DNA from: a virus
Taxonomy: Duplodnaviria; Heunggongvirae; Uroviricota; Caudoviricetes
Virus record (IMG/VR): IMGVR_UViG_2585427785_000003
DNA: 4,789 bases
Strand: one strand, 5' to 3'
The notes below the pieces were generated by a model, which did not search any database, was not told the origin of the DNA, and worked only from the letters and a program-made list of their open reading frames with translations. The position numbers and the translations under genes were made by a program. Each line of letters opens with the position of its first letter. Within the stretch, counting starts at the first letter, position 1. Below, piece after piece: positions 1 through 4,789 of this stretch.

Positions 1-467
1 AACACATCAATGATGAACGCCACATAAACGAAGCCCTGCCATGTGCTGACGTAAGTAAAATCAGCCACCCACAGCTGGTCTGGTCGTTCTGCCACGAACT
101 GACGGTTTACGCGGTCGCCTGCGGCAACGGCTTTCCGGCTGATGGTCGTACGGACCTTTTTACCCCGGAGAACACCGGCAAGTCCCATAACCGCCATGAG
201 ACGTGCCACAGTGCATCTGGCCACTCTGATACCTTCCCGTAACAACTGACGCCAGACTTTACGCACACCGTATACCTTGTGATTTTCATCGTATACGCGC
301 TGTATCTCTTTCTTCAGCCAGTCATCGCGCTGCGCACGGGCACTGCGTTTATCAGGACGATGTCGCTGTTGCTGACAGTGGTAATACGTTGACGGGGCAA
401 TATGCAGTTCGCTGCATAGCGGTCCGCCCCCGTACTGCTCACGCAGCTTATCCAGCAGTGGCATCAT
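1..467 (-). CDS. IS3-family transposase OrfB (DDE integrase domain), N-terminal ~155 codons; 3' part lies outside the window
   Basis: The minus-strand frame starting ATGATG at 467-462 translates [155 protein letters not shown] with no stop down to position 1. It is in the -1 frame relative to orfA and overlaps the orfA stop, as in IS3-family orfAB arrangements. It is absent from the ORF track only because it runs off the window. Confidence 0.85.
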
Positions 468-790
468 TTTTTCCAGAGGCGGTCGAACTCCGCCTTCGCA
501 AAATAAGCGGAAGCCTGGCGAAGGATATCGTTACTGCGGCGCAGTTCACGATTTTCACGTTCCAGCTCTTTCAGACGCTGACGTTCAGCGGTGGTGAGCC
601 CGCCATCACCGCCTCCGGTATCCCGCTCATGCTGGCGTACCCAGACAAGCAGAGTCTCCGGTGTACAGCCAATCTTTGGGGCAATGGAACAAATTGCCGC
701 CCACTGTGAGTCATATTCGCCCTGACTTTCCAGAACCATACGGACTGCCCGTTGACGGACTTCGGGGGAAAAACGAGTATTTTTAGTCAT
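464..790 (-). CDS. IS3-family transposase OrfA (helix-turn-helix / leucine-zipper DNA-binding subunit), 108 aa
   Basis: The ORF-track protein [108 protein letters not shown] matches the IS629/IS1203 OrfA as I recall it. It ends LWKK-stop at an A6 run (plus-strand T-run 467-472) immediately overlapping the orfB ATG. Confidence 0.9.
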
Positions 791-819
791 CCTGTTTACC
801 TCTTTCTCAGGAAGTTTAG

Positions 820-844
820 TCTCCAGGATCCCCGGGGCGGTTCA
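820..844. repeat. Terminal inverted repeat (IRL) of the IS element
   Basis: This is the terminal ~25 bp of the IS, ending ...GGGGCGGTTCA at 844 on the plus strand (TGAACCGCCCC... when read from the IS end inward). The exact IR length cannot be fixed because the opposite end is outside the window. Confidence 0.5.
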
Positions 845-923
845 AGTCTTATCTGCAGCATCAGTACTCCTTTAAGATTGAAAATCCTGCCAATAAGCAC
901 GAGCGTCCTCATCATAAATATCT

Positions 924-927
<4 letters not shown>
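845..927 (+). pseudogene. 3' remnant of a lambdoid class I holin (S) gene, interrupted by the IS insertion
   Basis: The frame ending in TGA at 925-927 (ATGA overlap with the endolysin start) translates ...SYLQHQYSFKIENPANKHERPHHKYL-stop. This resembles the charged C-terminal tail of lambda-type holins (recalled lambda S C-terminus ...[22 protein letters not shown]). The frame is cut by the IS end at 844, so the N-terminal transmembrane part is missing from this side of the IS. Confidence 0.5.
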
Positions 928-1951
<1,024 letters not shown>

Positions 1952-2133
1952 GGTAATATTAAATCGGAACATTTACATCGCGGAATGTAAAATTTAAATA
2001 AAAAGGACTCTTCCATGAGCCAAAATTCCTGAAATCTTAAGGGTAAGATAAAAGGTCTTAATCAGAATGACACGTTTTATTAATAAATAAAGCTATTCTT
2101 TCATTGCTGTGTTTTTCTTTACAAAAGTAATCC

Positions 2134-2162
2134 TTGCTATGGGTGGTTAATCATGCGTTAAT
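2134..2162 (+). promoter_or_regulatory. Candidate sigma70 promoter of the cold-shock gene (cspA-type): -35 TTGCTA 2134-2139, 17-bp spacer, extended -10 TGcGTTAAT 2154-2162; predicted TSS near 2169
   Basis: The hexamers and spacing are seen directly. The architecture parallels the cspA promoter as I recall it (TTGCAT, 17 bp, TGgCTTAAT), with an AT-rich UP-like tract upstream (2075-2130). The predicted TSS gives a 5' UTR of about 145 nt, in the range reported for cspA-family genes. A second candidate is the extended -10 TGtTATAAT at 2202-2210. Confidence 0.45.
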
Positions 2163-2168
2163 GGTGTT

Positions 2169-2313
2169 CTGGTTTGTTACAAATTTATCTGAAGCAGTCA
2201 TTGTTATAATTTTATTATTTGTACCTCTTGAGATTTCCTTGTTGGTTTTTCTCTCTGATATTTTTTTTCGGACCATTCTGCCCAAGGGCTAATTTCTTCA
2301 AAAGGTAATAATT
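2169..2313 (+). promoter_or_regulatory. cspA-type long 5' UTR with cold-box-like start (GGTTTGTTACAAATT...) and the conserved AAGG Shine-Dalgarno context
   Basis: The UTR begins ...GGTTTGTTACAAATTTATCTGAAGCAGTC, which aligns with the recalled cspA leader start ACGGTTTGACGTACAGACCATTAAAGCAGTG. The sequence immediately before the ATG, AAAAGGTAATAATTATG, resembles the cspA AAAGGTAATACACTATG. Confidence 0.45.
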
Positions 2314-2526
2314 ATGTCTAACAAAATGACTGGTTTAGTGAAATGGTTTAACCCTGAAAAAGGTTTTGGTTTCATCACGCCGAAAGATGGCAGCAAAGAT
2401 GTGTTTGTCCATTTCTCAGCAATTCAGAGCAACGATTTCAAAACATTAACTGAGAATCAGGAAGTTGAATTTGGTATTGAGAACGGACCTAAAGGTCCTG
2501 CCGCTGTTCATGTAGTGGCGCTTTGA
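2314..2526 (+). CDS. cspI: CspA-family cold-shock protein (CspI-like), 70 aa
   Basis: The ORF translation [70 protein letters not shown] contains the RNP1-like KGFGFI and RNP2-like VFVHF motifs of the cold-shock domain. It matches the prophage-borne CspI rather than CspA/B/G as I recall them. It has a strong SD (AAGG) and a long structured leader. Confidence 0.9.
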
Positions 2527-2536
2527 GGTAGACAAT

Positions 2537-2725
2537 ATTACAAACCATATTCACTTTAGATGCCCGTGTTGTCATGGTTCCCAGTATAGAACATCATCTT
2601 TTGATGTTTCTGACATGAATCCTTTCGGGGCAAAATGTATCTTTTGTAAATCAATGATGATTACATTTGATAATATTTCACAATACTTAAATGCCAGCCG
2701 TCTGTCGTTGGATTTAAAAAAGTGA
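2537..2725 (+). CDS. Candidate small Cys-rich (zinc-ribbon-like) protein; start codon uncertain (no in-frame ATG/GTG/TTG upstream of the first Cys pair; possible ATT start at 2537 with GAGG SD, or ATG at 2615 giving a 36-aa product)
   Basis: The frame is open from 2516 to the stop at 2723-2725 and reads ...ITNHIHFRCPCCHGSQYRTSSFDVSDMNPFGAKCIFCKSMMITFDNISQYLNASRLSLDLKK. The two Cys clusters (CPCC and CIFC) are about 25 residues apart. The ORF ends 5 nt before a strong intrinsic terminator. A GAGG sits 8 nt upstream of the ATT at 2537. A K-12 Qin prophage gene of this position (ynfN) is recalled from memory only; its sequence is not recalled. Confidence 0.3.
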   Translation: MTNHIHFRCPCCHGSQYRTSSFDVSDMNPFGAKCIFCKSMMITFDNISQYLNASRLSLDLKK

Positions 2726-2730
2726 AAATG

Positions 2731-2756
2731 AAGGCTCCTTCGGGAGCTTTTTTGCT
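2731..2756 (+). terminator. Rho-independent terminator: 8-bp stem (2731-2738 / 2743-2750) with UUCG tetraloop followed by a T-run
   Basis: AAGGCTCC-TTCG-GGAGCTTT followed by TTTGC, giving a GC-rich stem, a stable UUCG tetraloop and a run of 6 or more T. It lies directly after the small ORF and the cspI transcription unit. Confidence 0.7.
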
Positions 2757-2797
2757 TGGTGTCTATTCGATGGATACTCACATACTACGGTAACATC

Positions 2798-3028
2798 ATG
2801 AAAAAAATCATAGTTTTTTTTAACTCTGAACCAGCAGTGGTAGTGCCAGCGATGACTGGAGTTAACACCATCATGCGTGAATATCCAAATGGCGAAAAAA
2901 CACACCTTACTGTAATGGCCGCAGGGTTTCCATCTCTGACCGGAGATCATAAAGTCATTTATGTAGCCGCGGATCGACATGTTACTTCAGAAGAAATTCT
3001 GGAAGCAGCAATAAGGCTCTTGAGTTGA
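2798..3028 (+). CDS. Hypothetical 76-aa protein, YmcE-like (partner gene found upstream of gnsA/gnsB-type genes); alternative starts TTG 2756 / GTG 2759
   Basis: The ORF-track frame from the ATG at 2798 reads MKKIIVFFNSEPAVVVPAMTGVNTIMREYPNGEKTHLTVMAAGFPSLTGDHKVIYVAADRHVTSEEILEAAIRLLS. It lies immediately upstream of a gnsB-like gene, as ymcE does for gnsA in K-12 (recalled synteny and length, not sequence-verified). No good SD precedes the ATG, and the longer TTG/GTG-initiated version would overlap the upstream terminator. Confidence 0.45.
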   Translation: MKKIIVFFNSEPAVVVPAMTGVNTIMREYPNGEKTHLTVMAAGFPSLTGDHKVIYVAADRHVTSEEILEAAIRLLS

Positions 3029-3121
3029 TTTGATGCTATTGCATTGATAATTCAGGAAAATTCTCTTTGTCTGTTTGTGTAAAATTTAGACTATCGTATG
3101 TTGATTATTGCGATGTTTCAT

Positions 3122-3150
3122 CTTATCTTTTACACGTTTGCACCATATAA
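3122..3150 (+). promoter_or_regulatory. Candidate sigma70 promoter for the gnsB-like gene: perfect -10 TATAAT 3145-3150 with weak -35 TTATCT 3122-3127 (17-bp spacer)
   Basis: A consensus TATAAT lies about 50 bp upstream of the gnsB start codon and the -35 is weak. This is a sequence-only prediction. Confidence 0.35.
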
Positions 3151-3199
3151 TCGACTTACTGTGTAACTGGAAAGTCATAACAGACTAAAAGAGGAAATG

Positions 3200-3373
3200 A
3201 TGAATATTGAAAACTTAAAAACAAAAGCAGAAGCAGATATTTCTGAATATATAACAAAAAAAATTATTGAACTTAAGAAAAAGACCGGGAAAGAAGTTAC
3301 CAGTATTCAGTTTACCGCACGGGAAAAAATGACGGGTCTTGAAAGCTATGATGTCAAGATTAATTTAATCTGA
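3200..3373 (+). CDS. gnsB: GnsA/GnsB-family small protein (57 aa)
   Basis: The translation MNIENLKTKAEADISEYITKKIIELKKKTGKEVTSIQFTAREKMTGLESYDVKINLI closely resembles the recalled K-12 GnsA/GnsB sequences (MNIEELKKQAE...FTAREKMTGLESYDVKIKIM). A GAGG SD lies 5 nt upstream of the ATG at 3200; an ATG at 3197 is also in frame. It is missing from the ORF track because it is under 60 aa. Confidence 0.8.
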   Translation: MNIENLKTKAEADISEYITKKIIELKKKTGKEVTSIQFTAREKMTGLESYDVKINLI

Positions 3374-3400
3374 TGTATTCAATAATAAAATTTATCCATA

Positions 3401-3423
3401 AACCTCGTTTTTACGGGGTTTTG
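3401..3423 (+). terminator. Probable intrinsic terminator after the gnsB-like gene (stem 3401-3408 / 3413-3420, TTTT loop, followed by TTTTG)
   Basis: AACCTCGT-TTTT-ACGGGGTT then TTGTTAT; the stem includes one G-U pair and the U-tract is partly inside the stem, so it is of moderate strength. Confidence 0.4.
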
Positions 3424-3524
3424 TTATATTTGAATGGTTCCGAATATCTAAATCACAATTGTTGATGGTTTTTATTAAACCAATGCAGTCCGGCTCAGGA
3501 GTGAGAGAAGCCGGACGTTATGGT

Positions 3525-3935
3525 TTAGCGTGGTAAGATCTGTGTAGTTTTCTGGATGCTTTCAGTAAATAGTAATGAATTATCAAAGGTATAGTAATAT
3601 CTTTTTTGTTCGTGGATATTTGTAACCCACCGAAAAACTCCTGCTTTAGCAAGGTTTCTTCTGTATTCCTGAAATGTGATCTCTCTGGATTTCAGCTTAT
3701 TAGAGGTCGTTTCTATAAGATGCCTATCCTTTGAAAATTTGACAGACACAATGTTTTTTAGGCCCTTTAATAACACTGTATTATCATTTTTTAATACAAT
3801 ATGAACATTCTCTGTGGCTAAATAGTAAATGTAATGTGAGACATTGTGACGTTTTAGCTCAGAATAAAACCATTGATAGTTTAAATCGTTTCGAACTTTA
3901 TCAAATATTTGTTTAAAAATGACTACCTGATCCAT
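3525..3935 (-). CDS. ydfO: DUF1398-family protein (YdfO/YbcV-like), 136 aa from the second ATG; the ORF track's longer version starts at 3950
   Basis: The minus-strand ORF reads [145 protein letters not shown] (3948-3943) lies 7 nt upstream of the ATG at 3935, whereas the ATG at 3950 has no SD. The family assignment is from memory of prophage YdfO/YbcV proteins and their position next to gnsB in Qin-like prophages. Confidence 0.7.
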
Positions 3936-3992
3936 AGATAAACCTTCCATGTGATATGAGGGGGCGTAGTCTGCACGATTATCTAAATTGCT

Positions 3993-4226
3993 TCAATCTG
4001 GTCTGACCTGTTTTCTGAGCAATTCAGTAATGTCACTCTTTTCTTTGTTTGCTTCAGAAGAAACTCTTTTTTCTGAGCACAGTCTCCGGCGGCAGGCTTC
4101 AATGACCCAGGCTGAGAAATTCCCGGCCCCTTTTTGCTCAAGAGCGATGTTAATTTGTTCAATCATTTGGTTAGGAAAGCGGATGTTGCGGGTTGTTGTT
4201 CTGCGGGTTCTGTTCTTCGTTGACAT
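3993..4226 (-). CDS. Small ribbon-helix-helix-like (Arc/Mnt/CopG-type) putative DNA-binding protein, 77 aa; homolog of the conserved ORF found at the right end of phage lambda next to cos
   Basis: The ORF-track protein is MSTKNRTRRTTTRNIRFPNQMIEQINIALEQKGAGNFSAWVIEACRRRL.... It shows a basic N-terminal arm, a beta-strand-like RNIRFP, helix A, a G-x-G-N-x-S turn and helix B, which fits the RHH pattern (compare Arc ...QFNLRWPREVLDLVRKVAEENGRSVNSEIYQRVMESF). A nearly identical ORF is recalled in the lambda right arm on the complementary strand. Confidence 0.65.
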   Translation of the reverse strand: MSTKNRTRRTTTRNIRFPNQMIEQINIALEQKGAGNFSAWVIEACRRRLCSEKRVSSEANKEKSDITELLRKQVRPD

Positions 4227-4374
4227 GAGGTTGCCCCGTATTCAGTGTCGCTGATTTGTATTGTCTGAAGTTGTTTTTACGTTAAGTTGATGCAGATCAA
4301 TTAATACGATACCTGCGTCATAATTGATTATTTGACGTGGTTTGATGGCCTCCACGCACGTTGTGATATGTAGA

Positions 4375-4389
4375 TGATAATCATTATCA
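4375..4389. repeat. Perfect 15-bp palindrome TGATAATCATTATCA, nested in a larger inverted repeat GTGATA...TATCAC (4363-4390); Fur-box-like
   Basis: Seen directly. The 19-mer 4370-4388, GTAGATGATAATCATTATC, matches the Fur-box consensus GATAATGATAATCATTATC at 16 of 19 positions. Confidence 0.6.
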
Positions 4390-4394
4390 CTTTA

Positions 4395-4600
4395 CGGGTC
4401 CTTTCCGGTGATCCGACAGGTTACGGGGCGGCGACCTCGCGGGTTTTCGCTATTTATGAAAATTTTCCGGTTTAAGGTGTTTCCGTTCTTCTTCGTCGTA
4501 ACTTAATGTTTTTATTTAAAATACCCCCTGAAAAGAAAGGAAACGACAGGTGCTGAAAGCGGGCTTTTTGGCCTTTGTCGTTTCCTTTCTCTGTTTTTGT
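4395..4600. other. Lambda-type cohesive end site (cos): cosQ region about 4400-4424, cosN 12-nt overhang sequence GGGCGGCGACCT at 4425-4436, and cosB with terminase-binding R-sites R3 (4479-4490), R2 (4534-4549, inverted) and R1 (4576-4590)
   Basis: 4401-4436 reads TTTCCGGTGATCCGACAGGTTACG followed by GGGCGGCGACCT, which is the lambda right end joined to the lambda left cohesive end as I recall them. Downstream there are three copies of the CGTTTCC(G/T)TTCT R-element, one inverted, and the nu1 ATG is exactly 191 nt after the first cosN base, as in lambda. Confidence 0.85.
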
Positions 4601-4614
4601 CCGTGGAATGAACA

Positions 4615-4789
4615 ATGGAAGTCAACAAAAAGCAGCTGGCTGACATTTTCGGTGCGAGTATCCGTACCATTCAGAACTGGCAGGAACAGGGAATGCCCGT
4701 TCTGCGAGGCGGTGGCAAGGGTAATGAGGTGCTTTATGATTCTGCCGCCGTCATAAAATGGTATGCCGAAAGGGATGCTGAAATTGAGA
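4615..4789 (+). CDS. nu1: Terminase small subunit Nu1 (DNA-packaging protein), N-terminal 58 codons; continues beyond the window
   Basis: The translation MEVNKKQLADIFGASIRTIQNWQEQGMPVLRGGGKGNEVLYDSAAVIKWYAERDAEIE matches the lambda Nu1 N-terminus (winged-helix DNA-binding domain). It is absent from the ORF track because there is no stop within the window; the overlapping track ORF 4550-4756 is in another frame. Confidence 0.9.
   Translation, partial: MEVNKKQLADIFGASIRTIQNWQEQGMPVLRGGGKGNEVLYDSAAVIKWYAERDAEIE

Follow-up and report, generated by a model that had tools for sequence, protein, structure and literature searches.

In lambda, the interval from the spanin genes to cos holds bor, and in DLP12 the same slot is taken by borD-ybcV-ybcW; a DUF1398 neighbour is common to lambda (p78), DLP12 (ybcV) and Qin (ydfO). 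The bor gene, which encodes a lipoprotein with a role in serum resistance, stands alone and on the opposite strand. A second group of described relatives is the cspA family: cspA, cspB and cspG have in common with cspI a cold-shock-domain (CSD) protein, a long RF01766 leader and the promoter block TTGCT..TGCGTTAAT. Among these, cspG stands in the chromosomal locus cspG-ymcF-ymcE-gnsA, at about 1.051 Mb in Escherichia coli K-12, without flanking phage lysis or packaging genes. The closest system of all is in the cryptic prophage Qin of K-12 (region b1552 to b1550), where the cassette is preceded by rrrQ and rzpQ and followed by ydfO, ynfO, cos and nohA. Several of its genes have been studied. 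cspI has been described as a cold-shock gene (Wang et al. 1999, as cited in later work), and its qPCR at 15 °C has been reported (PMC12562117). ynfQ has been entered as 'Qin prophage, cold shock induced' (PMC11228462), and YnfR is translated in K-12, its SPA-tagged form being strongly induced by cold shock (PMC6001520). Overexpression of gnsB increases unsaturated fatty acids and suppresses a cold-sensitive secG null mutation (Sugai 2001, as cited in later work), and restores growth at 25 °C to a relA fadR mutant (bioRxiv 10.1101/2024.03.27.586906); the published gnsB phenotypes all come from overexpression.

In this study, we analysed a stretch of viral DNA of 4789 nucleotides, referred to as the window, in which a sequence-only reading had singled out the interval 1952-3423 as a cold-adaptation island. 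This interval is identical to the K-12 Qin prophage at 100% of its nucleotides, so that K-12 gnsB is also the gene of the window, and over 845-4789 the nucleotide identity is 99.7%. Identity begins at 845. The gene order is the same in both; the window differs from Qin in an IS3-family element that replaces the sequence before 845 and cuts ydfR, whereas the cassette itself shows no difference. Of 5426 complete E. coli genomes, 2152 contain the interval, which is 100% identical in many non-K-12 strains. The phages Tritos and PhiR42_1 carry it at 99.8-100% identity, and 2H10, mEp460, HannyBb and PhiR63_1 at 94%. It is the already catalogued cspI-ynfQ-ynfR-ynfN-gnsB cargo cassette of a Qin-type lambdoid prophage of E. 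coli, a locus of the best-annotated bacterial genome in which all genes are named. The cassette that had been noticed is real but not new, because its link to cold and membrane lipids, the theme proposed from the sequence, had already been published for these K-12 genes (cold induction of CspI, YnfQ and YnfR; unsaturated fatty acids on GnsB overexpression); nor is the idea new, since the genes have been named, annotated and studied. The features of the window are collected in Table 1.

Table 1. Features of the 4789-nucleotide window and the basis of each assignment.
Feature	Position	Strand	Basis or remark
IS3-family insertion sequence (IS1203/IS629-like)	1..844	-	RefSeq annotation; inserted in ydfR, upstream of the endolysin gene
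IS programmed-frameshift pseudoknot	393-509		Rfam ALIL pseudoknot, 116 bits
IS orfA	464-790	-	Pfam HTH_Tnp_1 and NCBIfam IS3
rrrQ, endolysin	924..1457	+	Pfam Phage_lysozyme 1e-23; K-12 annotation
rzpQ, Rz-type i-spanin (DUF2514)	1454..1951	+	Pfam DUF2514 7.7e-39; annotation
Rz1-like lipoprotein ORF inside rzpQ	about 1647-1901	+1 frame	Lipobox LTSC; translation
AT-rich spacer, rzpQ stop to cspI promoter	1952..2133	+	About 30% GC
cspI promoter: -35 TTGCTA (2134-2139), 17-nt spacer, extended -10 TGcGTTAAT (2154-2162)	2134..2162	+	Comparison
cspI 5' untranslated leader, cspA-type RNA thermoregulator	2168..2313	+	RF01766; match runs through the coding region to 2553
cspI, 70-aa cold-shock-domain RNA chaperone	2314..2526	+	Pfam CSD 1.6e-31; K-12 annotation
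ynfQ, 62-aa YmcF-like small protein, two CxxC-type Cys pairs	2537..2725	+	Pfam YmcF-like (PF23641) 9e-32
ynfR, 21-aa small ORF, poorly conserved	2728..2793	+	K-12 annotation
Intrinsic terminator/attenuator: stem GAAGGCUCC / GGAGCUUUU, UUCG loop, U tract	2730..2753	+	Inside the ynfR frame
ynfN, 76-aa protein, function unassigned	2798..3028	+	PHROG 3425, 7e-54; annotation
Candidate gnsB promoter: TTGATT, 17 nt, TATCTT	3101..3129	+	Inferred from comparison alone
gnsB, 57-aa GnsA/GnsB family protein	3200..3373	+	Pfam PF08178 3.3e-35, full length; annotation
Intrinsic terminator closing the cassette	3400..3429	+	Scan match, 9 pairs and T tract
ydfO (DUF1398), homologue of lambda p78	3525..3950	-	Pfam DUF1398 1.7e-46
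ynfO (YlcI/YnfO family, DUF3950)	3993..4226	-	Domain matches and annotation
cosN, 12-nt cohesive end GGGCGGCGACCT	4426..4437	+	Identical to the cos site annotated in phage DE3
nohA, 5' part, Nu1-type small terminase gene	4615..4789	+	K-12 annotation; phage matches annotated terminase subunit Nu1

The cassette occupies the interval between the rzpQ stop and cosN, which is the slot of bor in lambda and DE3, as had been recognized. In these phages bor lies between Rz and p78, their homology to the window breaks off ahead of the cassette, and the lambda backbone restarts at 3506 with 84% nucleotide identity to DE3/lambda. The GC content is 30-41% over 1951-3450, compared with 46-51% over the lysis genes (901-1950). 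In the sense of Hendrix and Juhala the cassette is a classical moron between the Rz/Rz1 spanin genes and cos: it stands between backbone genes, is absent there from lambda and DE3 and differs in base composition, while a promoter and terminators of its own belong to the cassette as a whole and not to each gene. Its expression in Tritos, an active prophage of E. coli LF82 in which it is 99.8% identical, agrees with the moron reading; CspI and YnfN were 93-fold and 27-fold above the prophage background, and the authors already named both as morons (PMC9928086). The cassette resembles bor-type morons in being AT-rich, prophage-expressed, dispensable for lytic growth and equipped with its own promoter and terminator, and it is unlike bor in comprising five co-oriented small cytoplasmic genes behind a thermosensor leader. 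A duplicated 3' fragment of Rz accompanies the cassette in prophages.

The four consecutive plus-strand genes that had been proposed are all confirmed at their place as cspI, ynfQ (the Cys-rich ORF), ynfN and gnsB, but the fifth annotated small gene, ynfR, had been overlooked. cspI, ynfQ, ynfN and gnsB are real genes and not chance frames, because they have Pfam or PHROG matches and because most substitutions relative to the 94%-identical phages fall in third codon positions (positions 1/2/3: cspI 0/0/8, ynfN 1/3/8 and gnsB 4/1/9); all eight substitutions between cspI and its 2H10 counterpart are synonymous. CspI is 79% identical to CspG and matches the NCBIfam CspG and CspA models at 1e-40 and 1.8e-37, each just below the equivalog cut-off. 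With a CSD protein of about 70 residues and a long cspA-type leader, it has the features of the cold-inducible CspA family. YnfQ is 66% identical to YmcF, retains the CPCC...CxxC arrangement and belongs to PF23641; the RefSeq name of its product is 'cold shock small protein YmcF'. Translation of ynfQ starts at an annotated ATT, 10 nt past the cspI stop, which overlaps the ynfQ Shine-Dalgarno sequence (TGAGG). Both the ATT start and the overlap are kept in 17 of the 18 loci examined, the exception being locus L012. The translationally coupled small gene that comes next sets cspI apart within the cspA family.

The sequence-only reading had given each gene its own promoter and terminator. Comparison instead backs one promoter, that of cspI, a weaker candidate before gnsB, and two intrinsic terminators, one after ynfQ and one after gnsB; at the cspI/ynfQ and ynfR/ynfN junctions neither the scans for sigma-70 promoters and terminators nor the comparison revealed a promoter or terminator. 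The sigma-70 scan returned a single plus-strand site in the whole interval, inside ynfQ, and three sites in the window, below the 9.9 found in shuffled sequences. The block TTGCT..ATGCGTTAAT is invariant across the aligned upstream regions of cspI, cspB and cspG, and the promoter motif stands at an equal distance from the gene in Escherichia and Citrobacter cassettes (16 of 18 loci examined). Transcription probably starts at about 2168-2169, and the Rfam leader match begins at 2168. This match covers the full length of RF01766 (model positions 1-428) with 112.8 bits (E = 3.4e-29), the gathering score of the family being 78. Leaders of this family also precede cspB and cspG; that of cspI is weaker, their score being about 159 bits, and in the alignment with them part of its 5' cold-box segment is missing. 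The cspI leader is the best-conserved non-coding part of the cassette, being 97.9% identical in 2H10. The spacer upstream of the promoter has 91% identity to the same phage, below the 97-98% of promoter and leader.

Downstream of ynfQ, the first hairpin has a folding energy of -14.5 kcal/mol (z = -2.5). Together with a T6 tract it directly follows the stop of the ymcF-like gene in 17 of 18 loci examined, among them that of chromosomal cspG and again excepting L012, and its conservation includes G.U variants and one two-sided compensatory change. The terminator that closes the cassette folds at -11.1 kcal/mol (z = -2.5). In 2H10 and HannyBb, codon 13 of ynfR is a stop, whereas L006-type cassettes contain no such ORF at all. 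ynfN begins 4 nt past ynfR. It had been labelled YmcE-like, a label that does not hold: YnfN gives no BLASTP alignment to K-12 YmcE even at E<=100 and is a member of PHROG 3425. Its predicted structure is confident, and no structural neighbour was found for the model. GnsB is 67% identical to GnsA and matches the GnsA crystal structures 4XO1 and 4XO2 with E values of about 1e-20. Both hexamers of the candidate gnsB promoter are shared by the window type and the L006 type, whose spacer is roughly 70% identical and in which the promoter scan does pick up the site (TTGATA-17-TATCTT); the window version matches only eight of 12 consensus positions.

The chromosomal cspG locus repeats this layout, with the order csp, ymcF-like gene, terminator, spacer and gns, and has the same promoter motif, cspA-type leader, stop/Shine-Dalgarno overlap, ATT start and terminator hairpin. 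Homology is confined to the csp-ymcF block and the gns block, whereas the window between 2674 and 3181 (ynfR, ynfN and the 171-nt spacer) has no DNA homology to ymcE. A scan of one genome per species yielded 27 Gns loci, in 18 of which the terminator, promoter, ATT start and Shine-Dalgarno overlap were inspected. A csp gene lies directly upstream in all 27 and a YmcF-like gene is also present in 26, and the csp-ymcF-X-gns order is found in 26 loci with a middle gene X that varies by lineage.

Published expression values for cspI, ynfQ and ynfN vary together. The response to AZT is nearly equal (6.5-, 5.9- and 5.8-fold, respectively), and the corresponding values on loss of SspA are 38, 42 and 51 (PMC11228462); cspI and ynfN also follow one common profile across growth phases (PMC7406224). 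From this co-variation we infer an operon with read-through, that is, one transcription unit with an attenuator. The Tritos values of YnfN (27-fold) and CspI (93-fold) and the cold induction of YnfR, the frame of which opens at the hairpin, are in line with such a unit. A Qin-type moron cassette with a cspI promoter, a thermosensor and a read-through hairpin, working as outlined here, is in our judgement quite probably the best explanation of the locus. Transcription would begin at the cspI promoter and would not depend on the late promoter of the phage. The leader would hold output low at 37 °C and refold at about 10-15 °C to leave the mRNA stable and translatable, so that CspI, which acts as RNA chaperone and antiterminator, would be made together with YnfQ, a small zinc-ribbon-like protein. 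Some polymerases would pass the conserved hairpin into ynfR, ynfN and possibly gnsB, which may have a weak promoter of its own. Csp proteins are known to antiterminate at intrinsic terminators. By analogy, Csp accumulated in the cold may increase read-through at the hairpin, and we propose that the RNA arm (Csp) would in this way turn on YnfN and GnsB, the downstream arm. Overall, a host with the prophage would gain additional cold-shock capacity, a gain that is probably small and redundant with cspA, cspB, cspG, cspE and gnsA.

A cold-fitness benefit of the cassette to the lysogen is proposed. Single deletion of cspI has a marginal effect at 15 °C (PMC12562117). According to a citation in one study, these csp genes gave no cold response in a pathogenic strain (PMC7406224). 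In the accessible text of the Qin deletion study, where 'low temperature' occurs zero times and 'cold' once, no low-temperature test of the prophage-deletion strains is described (PMC3105296). The clearest cspI phenotype is seen in long-term stationary phase at 37 °C, where the mutant loses competitiveness, is out-competed and has disappeared by 192 h, and cspI and ynfN are among the few genes whose expression peaks under these conditions (PMC7406224). The stationary-phase findings speak for a cargo for stress and starvation in general, which would help the host during slow growth or damage (long-term stationary phase or replication stress, for example) by remodelling RNA structure, cold being one input among several. 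Consistent with this, cspI and ynfN respond to DNA damage at 37 °C, the AZT induction of about sixfold for cspI, ynfQ and ynfN depends on LexA and SspA (PMC11228462), and the high CspI and YnfN levels of the Tritos lysogen were recorded in overnight LB cultures without cold (PMC9928086). The leader, in contrast, belongs to the cspA thermoregulator family and is so well conserved, YnfR and YnfQ are reported to be cold-induced (PMC6001520, PMC11228462), and the GnsB overexpression phenotypes concern low temperature and membrane fluidity. A general stress cargo is thus a possible account of the locus, though not the one we would expect to prevail; the two readings are compatible with each other.

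The cassette might alternatively serve the phage, with Csp and Gns supporting late expression, lysis or assembly during infection or induction at low temperature. It shares its strand with rrrQ and rzpQ and comes directly after both; because it is co-oriented with the late operon and directly follows Rz, Q-antiterminated late transcription would enter it. The cassette is retained in the sequenced phages Tritos, 2H10, mEp460 and HannyBb, and the four-gene block keeps its position after the DUF2514 Rz gene in prophages with different terminases and unrelated packaging modules, with the Rz 3' duplicate travelling along. Its own promoter is conserved, however, and it is expressed in uninduced lysogens. 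Defective prophages, K-12 Qin among them, also keep the cassette at 100% identity, the IS cuts the lysis region in the window, and the chromosome has a fixed paralogue, csp-ymcF-gns, that lies in no recognisable prophage. A role in the lytic programme is on this evidence unlikely.

The architecture originally proposed, four independent single-gene morons gathered by successive insertions and each with a promoter and terminator, draws on the mosaic middle of the cassette, in which the gene differs between lineages while only the csp-ymcF and gns blocks are homologous to the chromosomal paralogue, and on the candidate promoter before gnsB. The coupling of ynfQ to cspI through a Shine-Dalgarno sequence within the stop codon, the 4 nt between ynfR and ynfN, the presence of only two terminators and one well-supported promoter, the co-varying expression, and the constancy of gene order (26 of 27 loci) and terminator (17 of 18) speak for a joint unit instead, and separate acquisition seems very improbable.

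An addiction module of GnsB as toxin and YnfN, in the place of YmcE, as antitoxin, serving prophage stabilisation or defence, is suggested by names (the Pfam family 'GnsA/GnsB toxin', the RefSeq product 'addiction module toxin') and by the counting of ymcE-gnsA among the type II toxin-antitoxin pairs of E. coli (PMC8484670), and is hardly credible given that YnfN is unrelated to YmcE and no YmcE-homologous antitoxin gene adjoins gnsB, that 171 nt without coupling separate ynfN from gnsB in place of a tight two-gene operon with a conserved partner, that the gene before gns is interchangeable across the 27 loci (YnfN-type, YmcE-type or none), that ymcE is a broken ORF in several species of Escherichia and has no coding-type substitution pattern, that PADLOC models match no cassette protein except the CSD, and that overexpression of gnsA or gnsB rescues the growth of several mutants instead of stopping growth. 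The name 'addiction module toxin' seems ill-founded for GnsB and should not be accepted at face value when pipelines count toxin-antitoxin or defence systems.

The preferred reading, a moron cassette behind a thermosensor, makes this locus a textbook case of host stress genes that prophages hold in additional copies. YnfN and GnsB are invariably linked to a csp gene and a conserved terminator, which offers a concrete, testable model for the regulation of the downstream half. More tentatively, csp-ymcF-terminator-X-gns may be one conserved regulatory device and not a loose collection of cargo, a Csp-sensitive attenuator in which CspI, CspG or CspA would melt the hairpin and so permit expression of YnfN and the lipid-modifying Gns, forming a feed-forward link between RNA and membrane in the cold; this carries its corollaries with it and is, as a whole, less likely than the cassette model itself. 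If it is true, the YnfR and YmcE 'proteins' would largely be translations of a terminator and of a conserved leader of gns that is itself non-coding, 'GnsA/GnsB toxin-antitoxin' would be a mistaken annotation, and YnfN, always linked to csp, would be an unrecognised cold-shock effector.

Everything in the window from position 845 onwards corresponds, at 99.7% identity, to the right end of Qin, a cryptic prophage of E. coli K-12; across 1952-3423 K-12 and many other strains are 100% identical to the window. Of 5426 complete E. coli genomes, 2152 contain this inner segment, nearly always on the chromosome. The locus is already known, being named, annotated and partly characterised in E. coli K-12 and in known phages. 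The sequence-only reading had taken 1952-3423 to be a cold-adaptation moron island between the lysis genes and cos; what it observed is real, and its interpretation is broadly right. The genes on which it relied are confirmed by Pfam matches for CspI (CSD, 1.6e-31), the Cys-rich YnfQ (YmcF-like, 9e-32) and GnsB (3.3e-35), and YnfN, although lacking a Pfam family, is a genuine gene that matches PHROG 3425 at 7e-54. In a comparison with phages 2H10 and HannyBb, which are 94% identical, all substitutions in cspI are synonymous (8/8), and those in ynfN and gnsB are distributed over the three codon positions as in coding sequence (1/3/8 and 4/1/9, respectively). The small gene ynfR and the ATT start of ynfQ had been overlooked.

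The placement between Rz and cos had also been recognized correctly, the order in lambda and DE3 being Rz, bor, p78 (DUF1398), p79, cos and nu1. Homology to lambda is absent across the cassette and restarts at 3506, at the DUF1398 gene, and the GC content is 30-41% in the island compared with 46-51% in the lysis genes. PHROGs (phrog_413) and several phage entries name the DUF1398 gene, ydfO, a 'head protein'; this is probably a misnomer, given that the gene belongs to the Rz-to-cos moron region and runs on the opposite strand. On the other side, the IS3-family element, whose ALIL programmed-frameshift pseudoknot scores 116 bits (Rfam), interrupts ydfR at a point some 80 nt before the endolysin gene rrrQ; with the holin gene and late promoter thus cut off from rrrQ and rzpQ, this prophage copy is lysis-defective. 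An Rz1-type o-spanin ORF with a lipoprotein signal is nested in rzpQ in the +1 frame (1647-1901, plus strand) and is unannotated in the RefSeq record used. Close to the lysis region, Qin-type prophages carry more small genes of the cold-shock and zinc-ribbon kinds (463-1191 and 1555-1725 in comparison locus L001; 2431-2604 and 5051-5215 in L006): YnfU-family genes, and cspF and cspB, which precede the holin gene. The cspI cassette is thus not the only csp insertion in this part of the late region but one of several.

Features of the window, with gene coordinates transferred from the K-12 annotation
Feature	Position	Strand	Basis or details
IS3-family element (IS1203/IS629-like)	1-844	-	orfA 464-790; ALIL pseudoknot 393-509
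rrrQ (endolysin)	924-1457	+	K-12 annotation
rzpQ (Rz gene)	1454-1951	+	K-12 annotation
cspI promoter	-35 TTGCTA 2134-2139; extended -10 TGcGTTAAT 2154-2162	+	Comparative alignment; 17-nt spacer
cspI	2314-2526	+	K-12 annotation
ynfQ (Cys-rich)	2537-2725	+	K-12 annotation
ynfR (21 codons)	2728-2793	+	K-12 annotation
Intrinsic terminator, directly 3' of ynfQ stop	2730-2753		Fold -14.5 kcal/mol, UUCG loop, U6 tract
ynfN	2798-3028	+	K-12 annotation
Candidate gnsB promoter, TTGATT-17-TATCTT	3101-3129	+	Shared by two spacer types ~70% identical
gnsB	3200-3373	+	K-12 annotation
Second terminator, end of cassette	3400-3429		Scan and fold
ydfO (DUF1398)	3525-3935 (also delimited as 3525-3950)	-	K-12 annotation for 3525-3935
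ynfO	3993-4226	-	K-12 annotation
cos, 12-nt cohesive end GGGCGGCGACCT	4426-4437		Match to annotated cos of phage DE3
nohA	from 4615	+	K-12 annotation

Each gene had been credited with its own promoter and terminator. The locus instead holds one conserved promoter, that of cspI, a candidate before gnsB and two terminators. A generic sigma-70 scan returned no site upstream of any cassette gene and was uninformative here, and promoters were sought by comparative alignment in its place. A block, TTGCT...ATGCGTTAAT, is invariant in the aligned upstream regions of cspI, cspB and cspG, and in cassettes of Escherichia and Citrobacter the cspI promoter motif is found equally far from the start of csp. 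The cspA thermoregulator model of Rfam matches at full length over 2168-2553 (112.8 bits against a gathering score of 78) and also matches ahead of cspB and cspG. No other non-coding part is conserved as well as the promoter and leader of cspI, which are 97-98% identical to those of 2H10. A Shine-Dalgarno sequence (TGAGG or TAAGG) overlaps the cspI stop codon and the ATT start of ynfQ lies 10 nt past it; 17 of the 18 loci examined share both features, L012, a Logan contig, being the exception. Both ynfQ and its chromosomal counterpart ymcF were reportedly discovered by ribosome profiling, in a paper said to have appeared in mBio in 2019.

The hairpin and T tract that follow ynfQ are kept in 17 of 18 loci examined, the chromosomal cspG locus among them. 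The stem shows G.U variants and one two-sided compensatory change (GGCCCC/GGGGCC in comparison locus L109); these pairs were read straight from the sequences, loop-length differences shifting the alignment and precluding formal pair counts. The same hairpin and T tract are translated in YnfR (KAPSGAFLLG; window 2728-2760) and in residues ~11-20 of YmcE (RLPRGAFFIS; ~2375-2405 of L003, the K-12 region with the paralogous cspG-ymcF-ymcE-gnsA). YnfR has only 12 codons in 2H10 and HannyBb and is missing from Citrobacter-type cassettes. Within the window, the ynfN-gnsB interval contains no terminator. The promoter before gnsB is a candidate drawn from sequence comparison, and the gnsB leader, considered as a second thermosensor, gave a fold z-score of only -2.3. 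In 2H10 and HannyBb (L004 and L005) a 36-bp insertion lies straight after the gnsB stop (equivalent to window 3375), before the terminator.

Published data document both cold induction and expression from the prophage. cspI is a recognized cold-shock gene (Wang et al., 1999, as cited in papers including PMC7406224) and its mRNA is raised at 15 °C (PMC12562117); YnfR-SPA is scarcely detectable at 37 °C and is strongly induced by cold shock (PMC6001520); and the entry for ynfQ reads 'Qin prophage, cold shock induced' (PMC11228462). Responses of cspI, ynfQ and ynfN are near-identical for AZT (6.5-, 5.9- and 5.8-fold) and for SspA (38, 42 and 51; PMC11228462), and one growth-phase profile is common to cspI and ynfN (PMC7406224). 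The prophage Tritos of E. coli LF82 has a 99.8% identical cassette, from which CspI is expressed 93-fold and YnfN 27-fold over the prophage background, both being named as morons (PMC9928086). A review lists cspI among the cold-regulated targets of Rho antitermination (PMC12360218). Overexpression of gnsB, as of gnsA, increases unsaturated fatty acids and suppresses a cold-sensitive secG null (Sugai, 2001, as described in a citing paper), and overexpressed gnsB restores growth of a relA fadR mutant at 25 °C (bioRxiv 10.1101/2024.03.27.586906).

That cspI, ynfQ and ynfN vary together, that ynfN is at a lower level and that an ORF starting at the hairpin is induced by cold all fit a single transcription unit whose terminator leaks; they fit four separate units poorly. 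In the single unit the cspI promoter would be active independently of phage late control, and the leader would restrict output at 37 °C and allow it in the cold. CspI and YnfQ would be produced together, and some transcription would continue beyond the attenuator to reach ynfR, ynfN and perhaps gnsB. We consider this mechanism, taken as a whole, to be likely. CspA-family proteins may also increase read-through of the attenuator in the cold, because they are known to act as antiterminators at intrinsic terminators, reportedly from work of the Inouye laboratory by Bae and colleagues in 2000; Csp-dependent antitermination at this attenuator is a tentative proposal that we hold to be rather unlikely.

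That the lysogen benefits at low temperature is no more than plausible. A general stress role for the cassette is a serious rival, because a single cspI deletion is near-neutral at 15 °C, with effects only in double and triple csp mutants (PMC12562117), because the clearest single-gene phenotype is the loss of competitiveness of the cspI deletion in long-term stationary phase at 37 °C (PMC7406224), and because the Qin-deletion study, in the passages covered, describes no assay of its deletion strains in the cold ('low temperature' has 0 matches and 'cold' has 1; PMC3105296).

GnsB is called a toxin by Pfam and RefSeq, after a proposed GnsA-YmcE pair (PMC8484670), but the evidence at the cassette locus speaks against its being the toxin of a toxin-antitoxin pair. 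The upstream gene ynfN had been described as YmcE-like, a label that has to be abandoned: BLASTP aligns no part of YnfN with K-12 YmcE, even with the threshold relaxed to E<=100, and DNA homology to the chromosomal cspG-ymcF-ymcE-gnsA is limited to window 2310-2673 and 3182-3374. A 171-nt spacer parts ynfN from gnsB, the upstream partner across 27 Gns loci is YnfN-type, YmcE-type or absent, and overexpression of gnsA or gnsB rescues growth. PADLOC gave no match for YnfQ, YnfN or GnsB, its sole match being a generic CSD. The ymcE reading frame is itself not kept across Escherichia species, being broken by lost start codons, frameshifts and stops (~4280-4500 in comparison loci L111, L112, L115, L117 and L119); its substitutions fall 5/1/0 and 4/5/4 on the three codon positions, and those of cspG, ymcF and gnsA are third-position biased. 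Highly conserved as DNA and including the ymcF terminator, the ymcE stretch (L003 2348-2578) looks like a non-coding gnsA leader and not an antitoxin gene. The co-orientation of the cassette with the late operon would be compatible with an action in phage late expression at low temperature, which we consider improbable.

The four-gene block lies 3' of a DUF2514 Rz gene in prophages with differing packaging genes (GpA-type, or Terminase_4/TerL with HNH). A partial second copy of the 3' end of Rz (DUF2514) is present just upstream of the csp cassette and downstream of the full-length resident Rz in comparison loci L006, L007 and L011 (~2980-3095), and we read it as a footprint of the cassette moving together with its upstream Rz end. 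The recurrence of the block across packaging types and the travelling Rz fragment indicate that it behaves as a mobile cassette. In a scan of one genome per species, Gns genes were found only in Escherichia, Shigella and Citrobacter, two MAG matches being set aside; the latter ('Veillonella parvula', L097, and 'Mucilaginibacter sp.', L113), assigned to unrelated phyla, are E. coli Qin or cspG-locus contigs with 100% protein identity and are almost certainly binning contamination. A csp gene is directly upstream in all 27 Gns loci, and a YmcF-like gene is also present in 26. The scan of viral contigs gave 80 loci with a single arrangement and every GnsB 100% identical; diversity was thus judged from the species-level scan, the viral contigs adding counts only.

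Distant homologues of YnfN (60% and 35% identity) also adjoin a csp gene. They occur in Logan contigs (L012-L014) at a divergent locus adjacent to icd, the gene that serves e14-type elements as attachment site. This locus has a csp gene, a partial ymcF-like stretch and the 60%-identical YnfN, without a gns gene; the second paralogue (35%) is upstream of csp (YnfN-like genes at L012 4001-4228 and 3037-3264). YnfN has no Pfam, NCBIfam or PDB sequence match; its predicted model is confident (pLDDT 87), with five strands and one helix, and resembles none of the structures compared. What the locus may newly contribute is a conserved csp-ymcF-terminator-X-gns layout with a possible Csp-controlled attenuator, together with the role of YnfN and the doubtful toxin-antitoxin annotation.
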